From Syntrophobacterales bacterium (GTDB taxonomy: Bacteria > Desulfobacterota > Syntrophobacteria > BM002), in contig JASFGC010000001.1 in NCBI GenBank assembly GCA_050123975.1, positions 1 through 41,655 on the forward strand: a DNA stretch of 41,655 nt, read 5' to 3'. A program made the position numbers and the translations under genes. The notes below the pieces were generated by a model. It saw only the letters and a program-made list of their open reading frames with translations. It did not search any database and was not told the DNA's origin. How positions within the stretch are numbered: position 1 is the stretch's first letter; each line of letters opens with the position of its first letter. Shown one piece after another: positions 25,765 through 39,471 of this stretch.

Positions 25765-26775
25765 TCAGGTTCCCGAGCCTTTCTGCAGTTGTTTAGCACG
25801 CTCCTTATAGCCAATGATTCTGTCTTTGGATTCAGGCTCTATCTCAATTACTCGGTCAAAGTCCCCTATCGCTCCAGCGTAATCTCCCAAATCCTGCTTC
25901 AGTATTCCACGCCTCAGATAACCATCAATGTACTCTGAATTCAACGCGATTGCCCTGTCAAAATCTTCCAATGCCTCGGAGTGATTGCCCAGATTCTCTT
26001 TTGCTATTCCGCGATTACAATACGCCTCAACAAATTGTGAATTCAACTCGATCGCCCTACTGTAGTCCTTTATTGCTCCCATGTAGTTTGACTGTTCAGC
26101 CTTTATGTTGCCGCGGTTATTGTAAGCGTTGGCATATTCCGGATTTATCTCAATTGCTTTGTTGTAGTCTGCTTTTGCTTGCTTTAAATTCTTAACTGTC
26201 TCTTGGGCCAAACCACGACTATTCAAAACATTGGCGAGAAGAAAAATAGATGGATATTCCAGAAAATCCTTTTCATCTAAATCGTAATCGAATCCGAGCG
26301 GGTCTGTGTTGTCGATAGTATAGAGAGTGTCATCAACTCTCAATCTATTTACCATATGACTGTCACTCACCAGGATTGTAAGATTCAGACTTTCCCTCAA
26401 GCCTAATACGGTAAAGAGAGCCGTCAAACCAACACACGAACCCACCTTGCGATTCACGTCAGGATCCAGTTGCGCGTCAATTACATCGGTCAGGAGAAAA
26501 TTACCATCGCACCTTCTCGGTTTTGTGTTCCAGAGGTATTCAAACAGCGACTGAGCCAGGGAGGCTATCATATATTCCCTCAAGGCGGACAGACTTACGG
26601 GACTCTTTGATGTCAGCTTTTCAATAAAGCCATGATAAATCTGATCCAGTTTTTGGGTGTATTCTCCAATCTCTTCCTCTGTTTTCAGCCCGGAGATTAT
26701 CAATAGACCTCTTTCCAGAGAGATATCCCTGCCTTCCTTAACGTCTTGAATGAGTTTCTCTTCCAAGCTTGCCAT
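25765..26775 (-). CDS. TPR-repeat protein with N-terminal transglutaminase-like (SirB1/YchA-like) region
   Basis: The C-terminal half holds 4-5 canonical TPRs (A..Y..AIE.NP....AY.NRG). The N-terminal half has GSCVGLTALF ... H ... D spacing. The track start at 26787 is TTG. An ATG lies at 26775. Confidence 0.7.
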   Translation of the reverse strand: MASLEEKLIQDVKEGRDISLERGLLIISGLKTEEEIGEYTQKLDQIYHGFIEKLTSKSPVSLSALREYMIASLAQSLFEYLWNTKPRRCDGNFLLTDVIDAQLDPDVNRKVGSCVGLTALFTVLGLRESLNLTILVSDSHMVNRLRVDDTLYTIDNTDPLGFDYDLDEKDFLEYPSIFLLANVLNSRGLAQETVKNLKQAKADYNKAIEINPEYANAYNNRGNIKAEQSNYMGAIKDYSRAIELNSQFVEAYCNRGIAKENLGNHSEALEDFDRAIALNSEYIDGYLRRGILKQDLGDYAGAIGDFDRVIEIEPESKDRIIGYKERAKQLQKGSGT

Positions 26776-26892
26776 ACTTTTTAGCAATTATTTAAAATAG
26801 TTCGTTAGTCCGTGGAGTAAAATTAGCGGCTCAACGGTAGCACAACTTACCTGCTGAGGTCAAAAAGTCCCACTAAACAATTCTCGCTATCC

Positions 26893-26948: not shown

Positions 26949-27107
26949 TCCGCGAGGCGGTGGTCAATGGTCCAAAAAAGAATCCTGAGTTCTGATAAGT
27001 AGAAAATCGGTAATGAAGGTTCTTAATCTAATTTTTCATTTATATTCAATAATTTAAGCTGCATACATCTCCTCCGAGGACAGAGTTTCATTTCTTTTCT
27101 TTGATAC

Positions 27108-27124
27108 CGGAATCAGCAGTTCCG
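27108..27124. promoter_or_regulatory. palindromic UAS candidate CGGAAT-CAGCA-GTTCCG
   Basis: Same 17-bp palindrome family as the five copies around 36.8-38.3 kb. Its end is 55 bp upstream of the TGG of the sigma-54 promoter. Confidence 0.6.
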
Positions 27125-27178
27125 ATTTTTTGCACTTCATTTTACAATAAATATAATAATTTCAATATTTTAAATACA

Positions 27179-27194
27179 TGGCATCTCTGTTGCT
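27179..27194 (+). promoter_or_regulatory. sigma-54 (-24/-12) promoter TGGCATctctgTTGCT
   Basis: GG and GC are at canonical spacing. An IHF-like TTCAATATTTTA (27161-27172) ends 6 bp upstream. The USP ATG is ~65 nt downstream. Confidence 0.7.
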
Positions 27195-27259
27195 AAAAGA
27201 CTCAGGTGTCTGTGATCATTTGTTGTCCAGATTGCATGCGGTTTGACAGGAGAAAAGGT

Positions 27260-28195
27260 ATGGCTGAATTGAGCAAAATGATAGTCGTAGCCGTGGATGG
27301 TTCCGAAAATGCTCTCAAATCCTTAGATTATTTAGGTCTGCTTTACGGAGCCAAGCCGAGCCTGGAGATCGTTCTCCTTTACGTATTACCTACTTTGCCC
27401 CCGATCCTCGTTGCTGATGATGACCGCCAAAGCAAGTTAAGACTGCTGGCTGTCGAAAAGAAAAGCATCCAGATGGCTGAGCGTATTCTTTCTGAGGCAA
27501 AGAACCTCCTCCGCAAGAAAGGTTTTAAGGATGAACACATTCGGTCATTGCATCGGAAAAAGCAGATGGGCATAGCCCGGGATATATGCAACTTGGCAGA
27601 TGAAAAGAGGGCAGACAGTGTGCTCATCAGTGCGAAAGGTAGAAGCAAACTGGAGGCTTTTTTCTCCGGAGGGGTGGCAAACAGAATGCTAGAGTATTGC
27701 CGTGTCTGTCCAGTGTGGCTAGTGGAGGGTACGGTCAAATCAAAAAAGGTGCTCATCGCCATGGATGGCTCAGCAAACGCTCTCAGAGCAGCAGACCATG
27801 CTGCTTTTATGCTTTCTGGAACCGACTGTCAAGTGGCTCTGTTTCACTCTAAACGACATTTGAGACGTTTTGTACCTCAGGAGATAATTGAGGCAGCGCC
27901 AGAACTGGTAGAACTCTGGAAAAATAAGGCGGGAGAGCAGATCGCGCCGTACATGAAAAAGGCGAATGAAATGCTTCTGGAAGCAGGCATCCCTGAGGCT
28001 CAAATAAAGACCAAGGTGGTTGACGGAAGCAGGGATGCTGCCAGCGATATCCTCAAGGAAGCTAAGAGCAACGACTATGGAACTGTGGTTTTAGGACGAC
28101 GAGGTCACTCAGGTGTAAAGGAATTTTTCATGGGCAGTGTCACCAGTAAGGTTCTCCAAGACTTTGCTGGTAGGGCTGTTTGGCTTGTGCAATAG
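27260..28195 (+). CDS. tandem universal stress protein (two UspA domains)
   Basis: Two copies of the pattern VAVDGSENA ... (G.RG.S....F.GSV...V) ... V.LV. The ATG at 27260 with an AGGAGAAAAGG RBS is preferred over the track start at 27206. Confidence 0.85.
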   Translation: MAELSKMIVVAVDGSENALKSLDYLGLLYGAKPSLEIVLLYVLPTLPPILVADDDRQSKLRLLAVEKKSIQMAERILSEAKNLLRKKGFKDEHIRSLHRKKQMGIARDICNLADEKRADSVLISAKGRSKLEAFFSGGVANRMLEYCRVCPVWLVEGTVKSKKVLIAMDGSANALRAADHAAFMLSGTDCQVALFHSKRHLRRFVPQEIIEAAPELVELWKNKAGEQIAPYMKKANEMLLEAGIPEAQIKTKVVDGSRDAASDILKEAKSNDYGTVVLGRRGHSGVKEFFMGSVTSKVLQDFAGRAVWLVQ

Positions 28196-28268
28196 TAAAT
28201 AGATCGCAATTTGTTTCCATGCTGGAATGGGGCAAATTGGAAAAGGATCAAAGAAAGGGAGGTTCAGA

Positions 28269-28868
28269 ATGAAAAGGTCGGTTGTTTATGTTGTCGGTTT
28301 GGTTTTCTTGGCGTTGTGCTCAATGGCTGGCGCAAAATCTCCTGGTACTGTTGGACCATTCGGTTTCGCCATAGGGAAAACCTCATATGAAGAGGTTTTA
28401 AATGTTGCCCAGCAGCGCAATTGGCGATATCAGGAATACGAGAAAAGACACTTTAAGCCGATAAGTAAGAAAGATCCTGCTCGTGGTAAGAACACTTTTG
28501 TAAGAGCAACACCCAAGGGTATTGAGGGGGTCAGAAGCATCCTGATATTTTTTAATGGCGAATCAACCCTTGATGCAGTGATCGTCATTTTGGATCCCAA
28601 GTTGTTTGAAGACGTTTACCAGCAGCTGGATGCTAAATACAAACTTGTCCAAAAAAGCTTGAAGGGTGAATATCTCTCTACCGATTATCCCTATGCGTTA
28701 TGGCAAAAAGATAATGTCTACATTGAATTACAGAAAGCTAGCCCTTATCGGACAAGATTAGTGTATGTTGAAAAAGCAGTGTACGTGAACTACCGAGATT
28801 TTCTAAACAAGCATTATCCACGGTTTCGGCACACTCAAGAGAAAAGAGGCTGGATGGACGAACTGTGA
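28269..28868 (+). CDS. secreted hypothetical protein
   Basis: ATG at 28269 preceded by AAGGGAGG. Signal peptide MKRSVVYVVGLVFLALCSMAGA. No family recognised. Confidence 0.55.
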   Translation: MKRSVVYVVGLVFLALCSMAGAKSPGTVGPFGFAIGKTSYEEVLNVAQQRNWRYQEYEKRHFKPISKKDPARGKNTFVRATPKGIEGVRSILIFFNGESTLDAVIVILDPKLFEDVYQQLDAKYKLVQKSLKGEYLSTDYPYALWQKDNVYIELQKASPYRTRLVYVEKAVYVNYRDFLNKHYPRFRHTQEKRGWMDEL

Positions 28869-30355: not shown

Positions 30356-31654
30356 TTACTTTACCAGCAAGGGCATAAAGATTACAGCAAAACCCAAGAA
30401 CGAGGCGAATCCGACACAGTCAGTCACGGTGGTGAGAAAAATTGATGAGGACTGTGCCGGGTCGCGGTTGAGGGCTTTCAATATGAGAGGGATGGTTGCT
30501 CCTGAAAGACCGGCCGCCACCATATTGACGATCATGGACAAAAAAATCACCAATGCAAGACCATAGTTTTTGCTCCAAACCCAGACAGCTCCAGCGGTAC
30601 CCACCGCAACTGCTATGCCATTAAACAGGCCTGCGAGAACTTCTTTCACGATAACCCGCTTGGCAGCGCCAGAAATGATTTCGTGAAGAGCCAAGCCGCG
30701 CATAACCACGGCCAGGGCTTGGGCTCCCGTGTTTCCTCCCTGACCGGAGACAATTGGGAGAAGCACAGCCAGGGCGGTTACCTTTTGGATGGTACCCTCA
30801 AACGCACCCACCACCGCTGCTGCCAGGAAAGCGGTCAATAAGTTTACGTATAGCCAGGGTAAGCGACGTTTTACCACAGTCGAAACCGGTGAAAGAGCGC
30901 GCTCGTCACCTCCAGCACCAACCATTTTCTGGAGATCCTCAAATGCTTCCAATTGACCGGCGCGCAGTGCTTCATCGTGTTTGATCACGCCCACAAGCCG
31001 ACCATCACTATCAACAACCGGTAGGGCAAGAAAGCGGTGCCTGCGTATAAGGGTGATAACCTCTTCCCGGGTCATGGTCTCGGGTACGCTGAGAATTTCC
31101 CGGTGAATCAGGGACTCTATTTTATCCTGTGGGGGTGCGAGCATGAGTTCGCGCATATTGAGGACGCCAGCCAATTTCCCATCGCTGTCAGTCACATACA
31201 AATAAAACAAGCTCTGACGTGGGGCTTTGCGTAAGTAAGCAGCCGCAGCTTTGACGGTCAGGTCCATTGGTATGGCAGCTACTCGCGGTTCCATCATTCC
31301 GCCTGCAGTATCCGGCGAATAATGCATGAGGTCACGGAGTTGCCTCGCTACACGATCTGAAAGCTTTGACAGAGCGTCTTCCCTACTGCTCTGTTCAAGA
31401 TGCTGAAGTATCATGGACGCTGTTCTCGGCGGCATGTTCTCCAGCAATTCCCTGACACGAGATGGATCTAGATTTTCTAGGATAGCGGCAGCAATATGAG
31501 GTCGGAGACGCTCCAGCAAAAGTCCGATGGCTCTGAATGGTAGCTTTTTTACGATCCCGACAGCTTCACTGATATCCAGCTGTTCTAAAGCATGTGCTGC
31601 ATCTTTGGGGTGGCTTTCCACAAATTGTCGAACAAGCAATTGAGCCGTTTCCAT
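30356..31654 (-). CDS. mgtE: magnesium transporter MgtE
   Basis: MgtE N-domain, CBS pair, and a C-terminal TM domain with SGQGGNTGAQ and DPA..SSIFLTTVTD motifs. It ends 9 bp before the cdaA start. Confidence 0.92.
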   Translation of the reverse strand: METAQLLVRQFVESHPKDAAHALEQLDISEAVGIVKKLPFRAIGLLLERLRPHIAAAILENLDPSRVRELLENMPPRTASMILQHLEQSSREDALSKLSDRVARQLRDLMHYSPDTAGGMMEPRVAAIPMDLTVKAAAAYLRKAPRQSLFYLYVTDSDGKLAGVLNMRELMLAPPQDKIESLIHREILSVPETMTREEVITLIRRHRFLALPVVDSDGRLVGVIKHDEALRAGQLEAFEDLQKMVGAGGDERALSPVSTVVKRRLPWLYVNLLTAFLAAAVVGAFEGTIQKVTALAVLLPIVSGQGGNTGAQALAVVMRGLALHEIISGAAKRVIVKEVLAGLFNGIAVAVGTAGAVWVWSKNYGLALVIFLSMIVNMVAAGLSGATIPLILKALNRDPAQSSSIFLTTVTDCVGFASFLGFAVIFMPLLVK

Positions 31655-36737: not shown

Positions 36738-36753
36738 AGCATTCCCCATGCCA
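36738..36753 (-). promoter_or_regulatory. sigma-54 (-24/-12) promoter TGGCATggggaATGCT upstream of groES
   Basis: Read on the minus strand. GG and GC are at canonical spacing. An IHF-like TTCAGTTAATTA (36760-36771) ends 6 bp upstream. The groES ATG is ~55 nt downstream. Confidence 0.65.
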
Positions 36754-36806
36754 AAGTGATAATTAACTGAAATTACAGGGTAAAATGAGAAAAATACGAT
36801 TGACAC

Positions 36807-36823
36807 CGGAACTCTGAGTTCCT
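36807..36823. promoter_or_regulatory. palindromic UAS candidate CGGAAC-TCTGA-GTTCCT (proximal to the groES promoter)
   Basis: 54 bp from the -24 TGG, the same geometry as at the other two promoters. Confidence 0.6.
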
Positions 36824-36910
36824 ATAATTGGGTGGGAAGATAGGTGGCTCAGTTTAGTCAGAACCGAGGATTGTTTCTAATGTATTGAAATCGGTTGAAA
36901 AACCAGATAG

Positions 36911-36957: not shown

Positions 36958-37075
36958 CATTACAAGAGATAGCGAAGAACCGCTGGGAGGAAGAAAGGGA
37001 AAAGAAGATTGATTTAAAATCATTTTTAGATTATTCACGCTCTAATCTATTGAATTTTGGGTGAGGGAGAAGCTG

Positions 37076-38116
37076 ATGAGCTCCGAGCTTGACTCTTTAA
37101 AAGACCAATTTTGGCAACCGAGTTCCTTGGCAGTAATTCAAACCAAAAACTCCACCATGCAAACGGTCTTCGCCAAAATCCGCTCTGTGGCGCCGACCAA
37201 GAGTACCGTTTTACTAACAGGTGAGACCGGAACAGGCAAAGGTGTGCTTGCGAATCTCATTCATCAACACAGCAATCGCAGGGATGCCAAGTTTGTCAGC
37301 GTTCACTGCGGCGCGATCCCAGACACACTCTTGGAAAGCGAACTGTTCGGGCATGAGAAGGGGGCCTTCACAGGTGCCGACAGAAGAAAGCTGGGAAAAT
37401 TCGAAATCTCCAAAGGGGGAACGATTTTTCTGGATGAGATCGGTACCATTACACCGGCTGCACAGATAAAGCTCTTGCAGGTACTGCAGGATGGGACTTT
37501 TCAGCGAGTAGGTGGTGAAGCGACCTTCAATGCCGATGTGCGAGTAATAGCGGCCAGTAATATGGATCTCGAAGAAATGTGTGACAATGGCCACTTTAGA
37601 AAGGACCTCTATTTCCGCTTGAACGTCTTTCCCGTGGAAATTCCACCCCTAAGGGAGAGAAAAGAAGACATCCCTCATATTGTGGAAGTTATTATAGGCA
37701 GGCTCAATAAATTTCACCTCAAAGAAATTCGCGACATCCACCCGGATGTAATGGAAGGATTTCTCAATTACTCCTGGCCGGGAAACATACGAGAACTGGA
37801 AAATCTCATGGAACGAGCGTACATTCTTGAAAGCTCATCTACATTGACGCCGGAAAGTTTTCCCTTGGAACTGCTTACCTTAGAGGCTCCATCGGCGCAG
37901 ATGGGGTTGGATTCTTCATTTACCTTGGCTGAGGTCAGACGAAGAGCCTTGGAGGAAGTTGAGAAGCGCTACCTGAAGGAGCTCCTTGCAGGCCAAAAAG
38001 GGAAAATACGAGAGTCGGCAGAGGTCGCCGGCATTACCACCCGCCAATTGCACAAGTTGCTCACAAAATACGGGATTAAGAAGGAGGACTTCAAGTCCCG
38101 TACCAGCCATCAATAG
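37076..38116 (+). CDS. sigma-54-dependent transcriptional activator (bEBP) lacking an N-terminal sensory/receiver domain (PspF-like architecture)
   Basis: Walker A LLTGETGTGKG lies ~50 aa from the start. The hallmark GAFTGA loop is present (EKGAFTGADRRK), as is Walker B TIFLDEIG. The C-terminal Fis-type HTH is SAEVAGITTRQLHKLLTKYGI. ATG at 37076 (the track's GTG is at 37061). Confidence 0.9.
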   Translation: MSSELDSLKDQFWQPSSLAVIQTKNSTMQTVFAKIRSVAPTKSTVLLTGETGTGKGVLANLIHQHSNRRDAKFVSVHCGAIPDTLLESELFGHEKGAFTGADRRKLGKFEISKGGTIFLDEIGTITPAAQIKLLQVLQDGTFQRVGGEATFNADVRVIAASNMDLEEMCDNGHFRKDLYFRLNVFPVEIPPLRERKEDIPHIVEVIIGRLNKFHLKEIRDIHPDVMEGFLNYSWPGNIRELENLMERAYILESSSTLTPESFPLELLTLEAPSAQMGLDSSFTLAEVRRRALEEVEKRYLKELLAGQKGKIRESAEVAGITTRQLHKLLTKYGIKKEDFKSRTSHQ

Positions 38117-38123
38117 AGCAAAA

Positions 38124-38140
38124 CGGAACCATGAGTTCCG
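38124..38140. promoter_or_regulatory. palindromic UAS candidate CGGAAC-CATGA-GTTCCG
   Basis: Perfect palindrome arms, 8 nt after the activator stop codon. Confidence 0.55.
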
Positions 38141-38256
38141 ACATTCAGAGAATCGGTCCTTCAAGTTCTTCCTCTAAAGTTATCCATAGAAATCAAGATT
38201 TTAAAAGCTCCATTTGAACTGTGCCCGCACTTTACCACTTTCTCTCCCCCCCATAG

Positions 38257-38273
38257 CGGAACCTACAGTTCCG
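38257..38273. promoter_or_regulatory. palindromic UAS candidate CGGAAC-CTACA-GTTCCG
   Basis: Perfect arms. Its end is 55 bp upstream of the TGG of the next sigma-54 promoter. Confidence 0.6.
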
Positions 38274-38327
38274 ATTGCTCTTCCCCCGCATCACATTAAA
38301 TATAGTTAATTCAATATGTTATTGAGA

Positions 38328-38343
38328 TGGTACAACTCTTGCG
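38328..38343 (+). promoter_or_regulatory. sigma-54 (-24/-12) promoter TGGTACaactcTTGCG
   Basis: GG and GC are at canonical spacing. An IHF-like TTCAATATGTTA (38310-38321) ends 6 bp upstream. Confidence 0.65.
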
Positions 38344-38494: not shown

Positions 38495-38761
38495 ATGATA
38501 AGCGGGGAAAAAGCCCCTGTGGAGGATTCTATCACCATTAGAGGACTGCTTGTTCCCATCGATTGGGATGAGAAAGGCAACATCACCGAGATTGCTGTTT
38601 CCACTTATTTCGAAGAGGAGTATCTCATCGAAAAGAATGTCAGGGGAGAAGAGATGTTGCCCTTCCTTCGCCAAAAGGTGAAGGTCATCGGATTCGTGAA
38701 AATGGATGAGGGTGGGAAGAAGGTTGTCAGGGTGGAAGAGTATCAAGTAATTGAAGACTGA
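38495..38761 (+). CDS. small acidic hypothetical protein (88 aa), first gene of the sigma-54-driven unit
   Basis: ATG with AAGGAG 9 nt upstream. The predicted protein is beta-rich (ITIRGLLVPIDWDEKGNITEIAV ... KVKVIGFVK ... VVRVEEYQVIED). No family recognised. Confidence 0.6.
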   Translation: MISGEKAPVEDSITIRGLLVPIDWDEKGNITEIAVSTYFEEEYLIEKNVRGEEMLPFLRQKVKVIGFVKMDEGGKKVVRVEEYQVIED

Positions 38762-38994: not shown

Positions 38995-39471
38995 GTGAAA
39001 TTGCAGAAGCTGCTCGTACCGGTTGACTTCTCGTTGGGTTCTGAAATGGCTTTCAAATATGCCAAGTTTCTGGCGAAAAAATTCTCCGCCAGCATCCATT
39101 TGATCCATGTTGTGGATAAGAGATACGTCGAAAAGATTGCTGAACTCAATGGTGAACCAGAAGACGAAGTGAGTGAGAAACTGTGCTCCCTGGCCAATGA
39201 AAAACTTGAAAGTTTCCTAACTTACAATGATTCAAATGGACTAATAGCCGGGAAGAAGATAAGTGTGGGGACTCCTTTTCAGGCCATAGCACTGCGTGCA
39301 CAGGTAATTGACGCGGACATGATAGTCATGGGTGGACAGGGGAGAGCTGGAGACGGAGAGATCGACGAGATTTTTTTCGGAAGTGCCGCAGAAAGGGTTG
39401 TGAGGTTACTCCCCTGTGCGGTTTTGTGTGTACCCCAGGAAGTGGATGGTCTCGGGGGTGGAGAGAAGTAA
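38995..39471 (+). CDS. universal stress protein (single UspA domain)
   Basis: KLLVPVDFS ... IVMGGQGR ... FGSAAERVVRLLPCAVLCV. GTG start with AAGGAG 7 nt upstream. Confidence 0.85.
   Translation: MKLQKLLVPVDFSLGSEMAFKYAKFLAKKFSASIHLIHVVDKRYVEKIAELNGEPEDEVSEKLCSLANEKLESFLTYNDSNGLIAGKKISVGTPFQAIALRAQVIDADMIVMGGQGRAGDGEIDEIFFGSAAERVVRLLPCAVLCVPQEVDGLGGGEK

Follow-up and report, generated by a model that had tools for sequence, protein, structure and literature searches.

The psp regulon of Escherichia coli is controlled by PspF together with the sites UAS I and II, IHF and sigma-54, and it has one promoter (pspA) beside the pspF gene and a second one (pspG) at a distance. In Bradyrhizobium japonicum the chaperonin operon groESL3 is dependent on NifA and sigma-54. 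In Myxococcus xanthus the sigma-54 promoters controlled by the NtrC-type regulator NmpR are preceded by several copies of the dyad that it binds, GCGCA-N5-TGCGC; its regulon was found by a genome-wide motif search and extends to loci away from the regulator, among them a universal stress protein (USP) gene and genes of CBS-domain proteins (PMC11841059). The orp operons of Desulfovibrio vulgaris are co-regulated by the sigma-54 polymerase, IHF and OrpR (PMC8359166; summarised in PMC7962754), and their IHF sites match the E. coli consensus (PMC8359166, PMC7962754). Several IHF paralogues have been tied to sigma-54 promoters in Geobacter (PMC7962754) and in Desulfovibrio (PMC8359166). USP and chaperone genes also stand behind predicted sigma-54 promoters in other phyla according to a 2025 survey (PMC12316311). 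The D. vulgaris sigma-54 regulome paper holds no entry for USP, GGAAC or IHF, and the motif described below was not found in the searchable literature when written as GGAAC-N5-GTTCC or variants.

We have analysed a window of 41,655 nucleotides (the whole stretch of DNA under study, positions 1 to 41,655 of one contig of a Syntrophobacterales bacterium, an uncultured sediment organism) with the focus on a tandem USP gene and the exported-protein gene p213 behind it. Our main proposal, to which we assign a probability of roughly 0.8, is that the USP-p213 operon is under the control of a complete sigma-54 control region (26979-27194), that it belongs to the same regulon as the groES-groEL-hsp20 and the p88-USP-kinase operons, and that its control region is a diverged copy of the cassette located between the activator gene and p88.

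The tandem USP that the earlier note had placed downstream of the promoter module could be recognized clearly: the gene at 27260-28195 (plus strand) encodes a protein of 311 aa with two Usp stretches (Pfam PF00582, E 6.5e-35). Reading of the translation revealed the ATP-binding motif G-x2-G-x9-G-S in the C-terminal domain (GRRGHSGVKEFFMGS), and in the N-terminal domain the first G of this motif is replaced (SAKGRSKLEAFFSGG), therefore probably only one of the two USP domains is able to bind ATP. After a gap of 31 nt the gene is followed by p213 (28227-28868, plus strand), which is probably co-transcribed with it and encodes an exported protein without known family, having a signal-like hydrophobic segment at its N-terminus and no match in Pfam or NCBIfam. 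p213 stands downstream of the USP gene in the genomes G008 (91% identity), G018 (78%) and G007 and on three metagenome contigs, and wherever it was found it lay directly 3' of a USP gene. The neighbour of the USP gene at 25765-26787 is on the opposite strand, and there is no co-directional gene upstream. On the other side the operon stands tail to tail with a cdaA-mgtE cluster; a near-consensus sigma-54 motif, TGGCATAGCAGTTGCG (30605-30620, minus strand), lies inside the mgtE frame, upstream of cdaA and on the same strand as it, with no palindrome alongside.

The control region consists of enhancer sites, an A/T-rich box and a promoter, the enhancer sites being given without strand. The proximal enhancer site (site 1, 27108-27124), CGGAATCAGCAGTTCCG, is an exact match to the palindrome of the inferred activator, CGGAAY-N5-GTTCCG. 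It is separated by 36 bp from TTCAATATTTTA (27161-27172), and 6 bp past this A/T box TGGCATCTCTGTTGCT occupies 27179-27194, with the ATG of the USP gene at 27260; these positions, which had been claimed from a first reading of the sequence, were confirmed to the base, and the claimed agreement in spacing with the module at 38257-38343 was confirmed as well, since the gaps there are also 36 bp and 6 bp. The A/T tract and the IHF-like box cover 27148-27172 (plus strand), where TTTCAATATTTTA at 27160-27172 resembles WATCAR-N4-TTR with T for A at position 2. For sigma-54 (-24/-12) promoters GG and GC doublets 10 nt apart within TGGCAC-N5-TTGCW were required; the USP promoter, TGGCATctctgTTGCT (27179-27194, plus strand), has one mismatch to this sequence and is the closest to consensus among the three module promoters of the window. 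The start of site 1 precedes the TGG of the USP promoter by 70 bp, to be compared with -70 at the p88 promoter and -69 at the groES promoter. On the basis of promoter geometry, with initiation expected some 12 nt past the GC, transcription would start near 27205, which gives a predicted 5' untranslated leader of about 55 nt (27205-27259, plus strand) with GGAG 8-11 nt upstream of the ATG. A consensus fold of the leader sequences of three species gave no covariation support for a structured or thermosensing leader.

Farther upstream the site AGAATCCTGAGTTCT (26979-26993) has 2 mismatches to GGAAY-N5-RTTCC and starts 130 bp upstream of site 1. It had been noticed before as an additional degenerate site, and it is indeed present; it should not be considered stray, however, because it is a conserved distal site (site 3) which has 1 mismatch only, that is a better match than here, in the USP regions of G008 and G018. 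Between the two lies a possible middle site (site 2), GGTAATGAAGGTTCT (27010-27024), which starts 31 bp past the start of site 3 and 99 bp ahead of site 1. It is degenerate (3 mismatches, with only the right half GTTCT recognisable), nevertheless 13 of its 15 columns are invariant across the three species and it is homologous to GGTCCTTCAAGTTCT of the p88 control regions; this stretch might be site 2, as a poor but conserved match at the expected position. Of the three enhancer sites of the USP gene in this genome one is a good match. We regarded as enhancers dyad sites situated about 80-200 bp upstream of a promoter and repeated at the other promoters of the regulon, and at the USP gene such sites are centred near -89 (site 1), -188 and -219. 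This arrangement recurs at groES, at p88 and in the 93 modules described below. As to the divergent TPR gene as a target of the distal sites, no minus-strand sigma-54 site was found, and this neighbour is not conserved.

Orthologous USP-p213 operons with the same module were identified in G008, a metagenome-assembled genome (MAG) labelled Syntrophobacteria, and in G018, a closed MAG chromosome of another genus. Relative to the ATG, both of them have the promoter at -80 to -82, the proximal site 1 at -150 to -152 and the distal site 3 at -280 to -282. The invariant positions of the three-way alignment are both half-sites, TCAA and TTA of the A/T box, and the GG and GC doublets; it is the N5 centres and the spacer 27125-27147 that vary. 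In G008 and G018 the variation in site 1 is confined to the central N5 and the R position, and in the promoter only the N5 spacer varies. The spacer 27125-27147 is the least conserved stretch (11 of 23 columns invariant, 48%), and 50 of 65 columns are invariant in the leader region 27195-27259. Conservation among the three species starts about 20 nt upstream of site 3. The flanking TPR and cdaA genes are not conserved beside the operon in the three species and p213 is kept, thus the control region, the USP gene and p213 form a self-contained conserved unit.

The excess of the motifs over chance was determined at several levels. Allowing at most 1 mismatch, CGGAAY-N5-GTTCCG gave 10 strand-hits at 5 sites in the window (0.28 +/- 0.57 in shuffles), and the complete 3.64-Mb assembly (441 contigs) contains just 4 copies of the exact palindrome, all of them inside this window. 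The relaxed 15-mer GGAAY-N5-RTTCC showed no excess genome-wide (23 against 19 in the reversed sequence). Copies within 250 bp upstream of a -24/-12 promoter are found only three times, at USP (-70), at the p88 operon (-70; promoter at 38328) and at groES (-69; promoter at 36753 on the minus strand), so that the combination of palindrome and promoter exists three times in the 3.64-Mb genome. The compound pattern GGAAY-N5-RTTCC-N50-60-TGGYAY-N5-WTGC had 3 matches in the window and 0 in 100 shuffles, and the pattern of A/T box plus promoter likewise had 3 matches in the window and 0 in shuffles. A chance origin of the USP module is excluded by these counts. Both the comparison with shuffled sequence and the genome scan had been suggested in the earlier note as checks, and the scan returned three promoters with an exact site, all in the window. 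No further member of the regulon, with a correctly spaced site that is exact or has 1 mismatch, was seen in this assembly, which is 86.6% complete and might lack further members.

The inferred activator is a sigma-54 enhancer-binding protein of 351 aa encoded at 37061-38116 (plus strand), in which Pfam recognizes Sigma54_activat at residues 28-192 followed by the AAA lid and finds no Response_reg (receiver) domain. The orthologue in G008 (476 aa; L007:1114-2544, plus strand) contains Response_reg and shows a sub-threshold match to a Fis-type HTH (HTH_8, 17.7 bits against a cut-off of 22, E 0.003). The orthologue in G014 (91% identity, 358 aa; L006:1167-2243, minus strand) also has no receiver, consequently the receiver-less form is not unique to this genome. 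rpoN is present too, as a 491-aa open frame with Sigma54_DBD (PF04552, E 1.1e-64) on contig C52. A perfect sigma-70-type promoter, TTGACA-17 nt-TATAAT (36800-36828, plus strand), faces the activator gene, and its 17-nt spacer consists almost wholly of the groES-proximal palindrome GGAACTCTGAGTTCC (36808-36822); an activator bound at 36808-36822 could switch on groES and at the same time repress its own gene.

Co-occurrence of an orthologue and a site is the standard comparative-genomics argument for assigning a cognate site. When the compound pattern was searched in 41 related genomes, 27 matches were obtained in 13 genomes and 0 in the reversed controls, and all 13 module-bearing genomes have an orthologue of the activator (E below 1e-160; 72-91% identity). 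Modules were thus present in 13 of the 16 genomes with an activator orthologue. The other 25, which have no close orthologue, yielded none; four of them possess relatives of 56-59% identity and the remainder only paralogues of 44-49% identity. Moreover, in eight genomes (G000, which is this genome, G007, G008, G009, G014, G016, G017 and G018) modules flank the activator gene. By co-occurrence and adjacency the palindrome behaves as the enhancer of this activator, and on the same two grounds we would assign the module to the gene at 37061-38116. The membership of the tandem USP gene in the groESL regulon, as claimed earlier, is supported by the exact site, the -70/-70/-69 spacing, the conservation and the co-occurrence with the activator; it can be stated that the USP gene very probably belongs to the stress regulon of the nearby activator. 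The claim that the regulon extends beyond the neighbourhood of the activator also holds: in G008 the USP gene is 15 kb from the activator gene on the same contig, and in G018 the USP-p213 operon carries its module 297 kb away from it.

The layout of the modules was studied on an architecture set of 93 modules, which drew on the 27 modules from relatives and on 83 modules from reference genomes, the latter collected by a stricter pattern including the A/T box. The 83 modules lie in 77 reference-genome stretches, nearly all of whose records are labelled as sulfate-reducer-type lineages of Thermodesulfobacteriota, and by our own estimate about 0.03 would be expected by chance. Repeating the pattern search at family level brought in no additional genomes, since the family comprises only 22. 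In general site 1 lies 68-70 bp before the TGG, site 2 about 98-105 bp (~103) upstream of site 1 and, in most of the 93 modules, site 3 about 129-137 bp (~133) upstream of site 1; the distal pair is spaced by 30-31 bp and site 3 often begins with AGAAC. In the 27 modules from relatives gaps of 50-60 nt were allowed and only 53-55 were seen. The enhancer appears therefore to be composed of three stereotyped sites and not of one site plus a stray.

The search that yielded the 27 modules made no demand on the A/T region, still a consensus taAttTCAAta..TTa emerged from them at a constant position, its TCAA occupying -17 to -14 relative to the TGG and the box standing 6-7 bp from the -24 element. 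The IHF consensus WATCAR-N4-TTR is quoted in PMC7962754. For an IHF site we looked for this sequence with an A/T tract about 8-10 bp upstream, and at the USP promoter TTTCAATATTTTA agrees with it at 8 of 9 defined positions and is preceded by the A/T tract ATAAATAT. The segment that had been called IHF-like in the earlier note fits the consensus, its position is fixed in modules found without reference to it, and it can be regarded as a candidate IHF-type site. Among the other 195 sigma-54-like sites of the genome the box stands at 6 bp in none and at 7 bp in one unrelated site, hence the tight spacing is a signature of the regulon of this activator. Seven genes of the HU/IHF family were found in the genome; IHF-alpha is the best match for two of them (105-110 bits, cut-off 111) and IHF-beta for three (89-109 bits, cut-off 115), in both cases just below the NCBI equivalog cut-off. 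A consensus sigma-54 promoter, TGGCACAGAAGTTGCT, with an IHF-like box 7 bp upstream is located on contig C212 of this genome (around 2857, minus strand), in front of a small gene of lipoprotein-like type. A different palindrome, GTCAGCAC-N8-GTGCTGAC, is situated about 215-240 bp upstream of this promoter, which probably belongs to the regulon of another activator.

The genes that recur downstream of the 83 modules are those of the p88 family (19), hsp20 (about 12), a small exported protein (9), groESL (8) and kamA (7), and the opposite-strand control returned one match in total. The core of the regulon elsewhere is made up of p88, hsp20, groESL and kamA. The tandem USP gene follows a module only twice in this set, namely at the G008 and G018 loci; a single-domain USP gene is also found after p88 in this clade (38995-39471 in the window). 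The tandem USP is therefore an accessory member of a regulon of the proteostasis and osmotic-stress type. p88 itself (88 aa; 38495-38761, plus strand), which has no Pfam or NCBIfam match, is the commonest first gene behind the module in Thermodesulfobacteriota MAGs (19/83, L100-L176) and is often present in two or three tandem copies. Genes of kamA-like lysine 2,3-aminomutases stand behind modules at L107, L121, L128, L143, L153 and L172 and at the G006/G016 loci L087 and L078, which hints that the regulon might also cover the synthesis of compatible solutes of the beta-lysine type; no pair of module and kamA was seen in this genome. In three MAGs (L115, L140, L164) a module is followed, at a distance of a few hundred bases and after a short acidic or basic ORF, by a gene of the DksA/TraR zinc-finger type.

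It was recognized that the USP control region has a relative within the window, the control cassette of the p88-USP-kinase operon (38124-38343, plus strand; site 3 at 38124-38140, site 1 at 38257-38273, promoter at 38328-38343). Local alignment of 26960-27172 with the activator-p88 intergenic region 38105-38321 extends over about 210 nt with a score of 47, compared with 18.7 +/- 2.4 and a maximum of 33 on shuffles; the groES region aligned to the USP control region scored 24 only, despite the shared motifs. The likeness begins at TCAAT overlapping the stop codon of the activator gene and covers non-motif stretches (GARAATCGGT...GTTCTT) in all orthologous pairs. The two regions are thus homologous, and this suggests that the one before the USP gene represents a duplicated promoter cassette.

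In the USP tree the protein of the window belongs to a clade of ten orthologues (support 95/99). No module was present within 1.5 kb of the gene in 7 of the 10 orthologues in the reference genomes (3 have one), nor in the available upstream sequence of 24 metagenome relatives (up to 600 nt; only 7 nt on one contig), the closest 13 of which (65% identity or more) all lack it. Outside the three module-bearing species the orthologues lie mostly about 125 nt after a corA-type gene (L178:1050-1510, L183:1050-1510, L037, L038, L042, some of them with p213), and neither a palindrome nor a sigma-54 site was found upstream of them. Among these orthologues p213 is kept in G007 and on the metagenome contigs L178, L183 and L188. 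USP genes and magnesium transporters show a recurring link (corA; cdaA-mgtE). Since most orthologues are without the module, the membership of the USP gene in the regulon is recent, and in terms of this distribution the USP is an accessory, lineage-specific member and not part of the conserved core; in principle the membership could also be decaying. The simplest reading is that the cassette was copied in front of USP-p213 in one small lineage (G000, G008, G018), a direction that we infer; the USP tree leaves the grouping of the three module-bearing species unsettled.

A more far-reaching idea can be formulated, which we put forward tentatively and consider rather doubtful. Measured from the -24 element, the enhancer sites stand at -70, about -173 and about -203. 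Three fixed palindromes and an IHF site locked 6-7 bp from the promoter might constitute a rigid, portable cassette of about 230 bp which templates exactly one activator hexamer through a double DNA loop, and Thermodesulfobacteriota might expand their stress regulon by copying the whole cassette before new genes. The USP-p213 operon would then be a case caught in the act, with a copy of the activator-p88 region replacing an older corA-linked arrangement.

According to the mechanism that we propose for the USP promoter, dimers of the activator (gene 37061-38116) would bind the exact palindrome 27108-27124, centred near -89, and more weakly the degenerate distal sites 26979-26993 and 27010-27024. 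An IHF-type protein bound to the A-tract and the TTTCAATATTTTA box (about -57 to -33) would bend the DNA and thereby bring the activator ring onto the sigma-54 holoenzyme at TGGCAT-N5-TTGCT, where ATP hydrolysis would open the promoter and transcription would proceed from near 27205. With the centre of the bend near -50 and site 1 near -89, the activator may be placed roughly symmetrically to the -12 region across the bend. Since this activator has no receiver domain, expression of the USP gene probably depends on the amount of the activator and not on its phosphorylation.

Several other explanations have to be weighed against this reading. The promoter could be functional and yet be served by another enhancer-binding protein (a paralogue, or a protein whose gene is missing from the assembly), the likeness of the modules reflecting a shared type of site. 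The activator query has 23 matches in this genome, with more than 20 other sigma-54 activator paralogues, and the assembly is incomplete as stated above. Nevertheless modules flank this very gene in eight genomes, they occur only where a 72-91% orthologue exists and are absent where 44-49% paralogues are the sole relatives, and the exact palindrome is found nowhere else in the genome, which makes another activator quite improbable. The palindrome could also be read as the hairpin of an intrinsic terminator (6-bp stem, 5-nt loop, ATTTTTT), as a terminator scan lists 27108-27124 followed by ATTTTTTGCA, or the module as a chance juxtaposition of motifs. The terminator pattern is confined to this genome: the T-run is broken in G008 (GATTTGTCCC) and in G018 (GATTTATTCC), elsewhere the palindrome has GATTGC or the like behind it in place of a T-run, terminator-like matches are at background (3 against 2.3 +/- 1.6), and with the upstream neighbour (25765-26787) on the other strand no co-directional transcript is there to be terminated. 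The terminator reading was rejected on these grounds, chance juxtaposition is excluded by the shuffles, the genome-wide count and the reversed controls, and we consider this pair of explanations extremely improbable.

It is also conceivable that the module is a dead remnant of a duplicated activator-p88 cassette and that the USP gene is transcribed from some other promoter, for example from the sigma-70-like TTTGCA-17-TATAAT (27129-27157), which matches at 10 of 12 positions and lies between site 1 and the sigma-54 promoter. The resemblance of the cassette to the p88-region copy, the degenerate state of sites 2 and 3 in this genome and the lack of the module in most USP orthologues would agree with this. 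The sigma-70-like match, however, is not kept in G008 or G018 and such matches occur at background frequency (6 against 3.7 +/- 1.9), therefore this promoter candidate was rejected. Furthermore the USP promoter is the nearest to consensus of the three in the window, and all functional positions have been preserved in the three species, which represent two genera, whereas in the neutral spacer only 48% of the columns are still invariant; a dead copy of the cassette is unlikely for this reason, and we rate such a remnant as improbable. Control of the USP-p213 operon through a working sigma-54 region of the activator's regulon is the reading that we retain.

By this analysis an activator seen at one locus beside groESL becomes the probable regulator of a regulon with a defined and searchable cis code, consisting of the palindrome, the fixed spacing, the IHF box and the -24/-12 promoter. 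The code recovers more than 90 promoters in uncultured sulfate-reducer lineages with essentially no background, and thus offers a way to annotate stress genes, including p88 and p213, in organisms that cannot be cultured. The USP gene illustrates how such a regulon may gain a member, by a cassette of about 200 bp placed before an operon that in most relatives follows corA. The kind of regulation, a standard promoter with sigma-54, activator and IHF, will be no surprise to the specialist: the cis code and the origin by cassette copying are well supported as the useful part of the study, and the mechanism is conventional.

Compared with the described systems, groESL3 of B. japonicum provides the precedent for a chaperonin under sigma-54 and an enhancer-binding protein, as proposed for the sister promoters of the USP module; it differs in that groESL and not a USP gene is the target, that the NifA site is TGT-N10-ACA and that the physiology is that of nitrogen fixation. 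The OrpR system shares with ours a host of the same phylum-level group and the combination of sigma-54, IHF and a cognate activator, but the activator, the binding site and the target genes are different, and the accessible part of that work mentions no box at 6-7 bp from the -24 element (PMC8359166).

Closer parallels are offered by the two remaining regulons. Like the psp regulon of E. coli, the regulon proposed here is a stress regulon under one receiver-less enhancer-binding protein, with dyad enhancers upstream and an IHF site separating them from the -24/-12 promoter; one of its targets adjoins the activator gene and another is far off. Unlike PspF, the present activator is descended from a response regulator, orthologues such as that of G008 (but not that of G014) having kept the receiver; its site is CGGAAY-N5-GTTCCG, its targets are USP, groESL-hsp20 and p88 instead of psp genes, and no PspA-like negative regulator was seen here. 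The NmpR system resembles ours in the 5-N5-5 dyad, in the multiple sites, in the use of a genome scan and in the presence of a USP gene among the targets. The half-sites differ, NmpR sites are 14-15 bp apart in contrast to one proximal and two distal sites (~103 and 133 bp upstream) here, and no fixed IHF box, such as the one present in our modules, is described for NmpR (PMC11841059). NmpR responds to oxygen depletion and is backed by binding and reporter data, whereas the module presented here was identified by sequence comparison. On balance PspF may be considered the nearest analogue for the logic of the regulon, and NmpR the nearest one for its content and for the method by which it was found.
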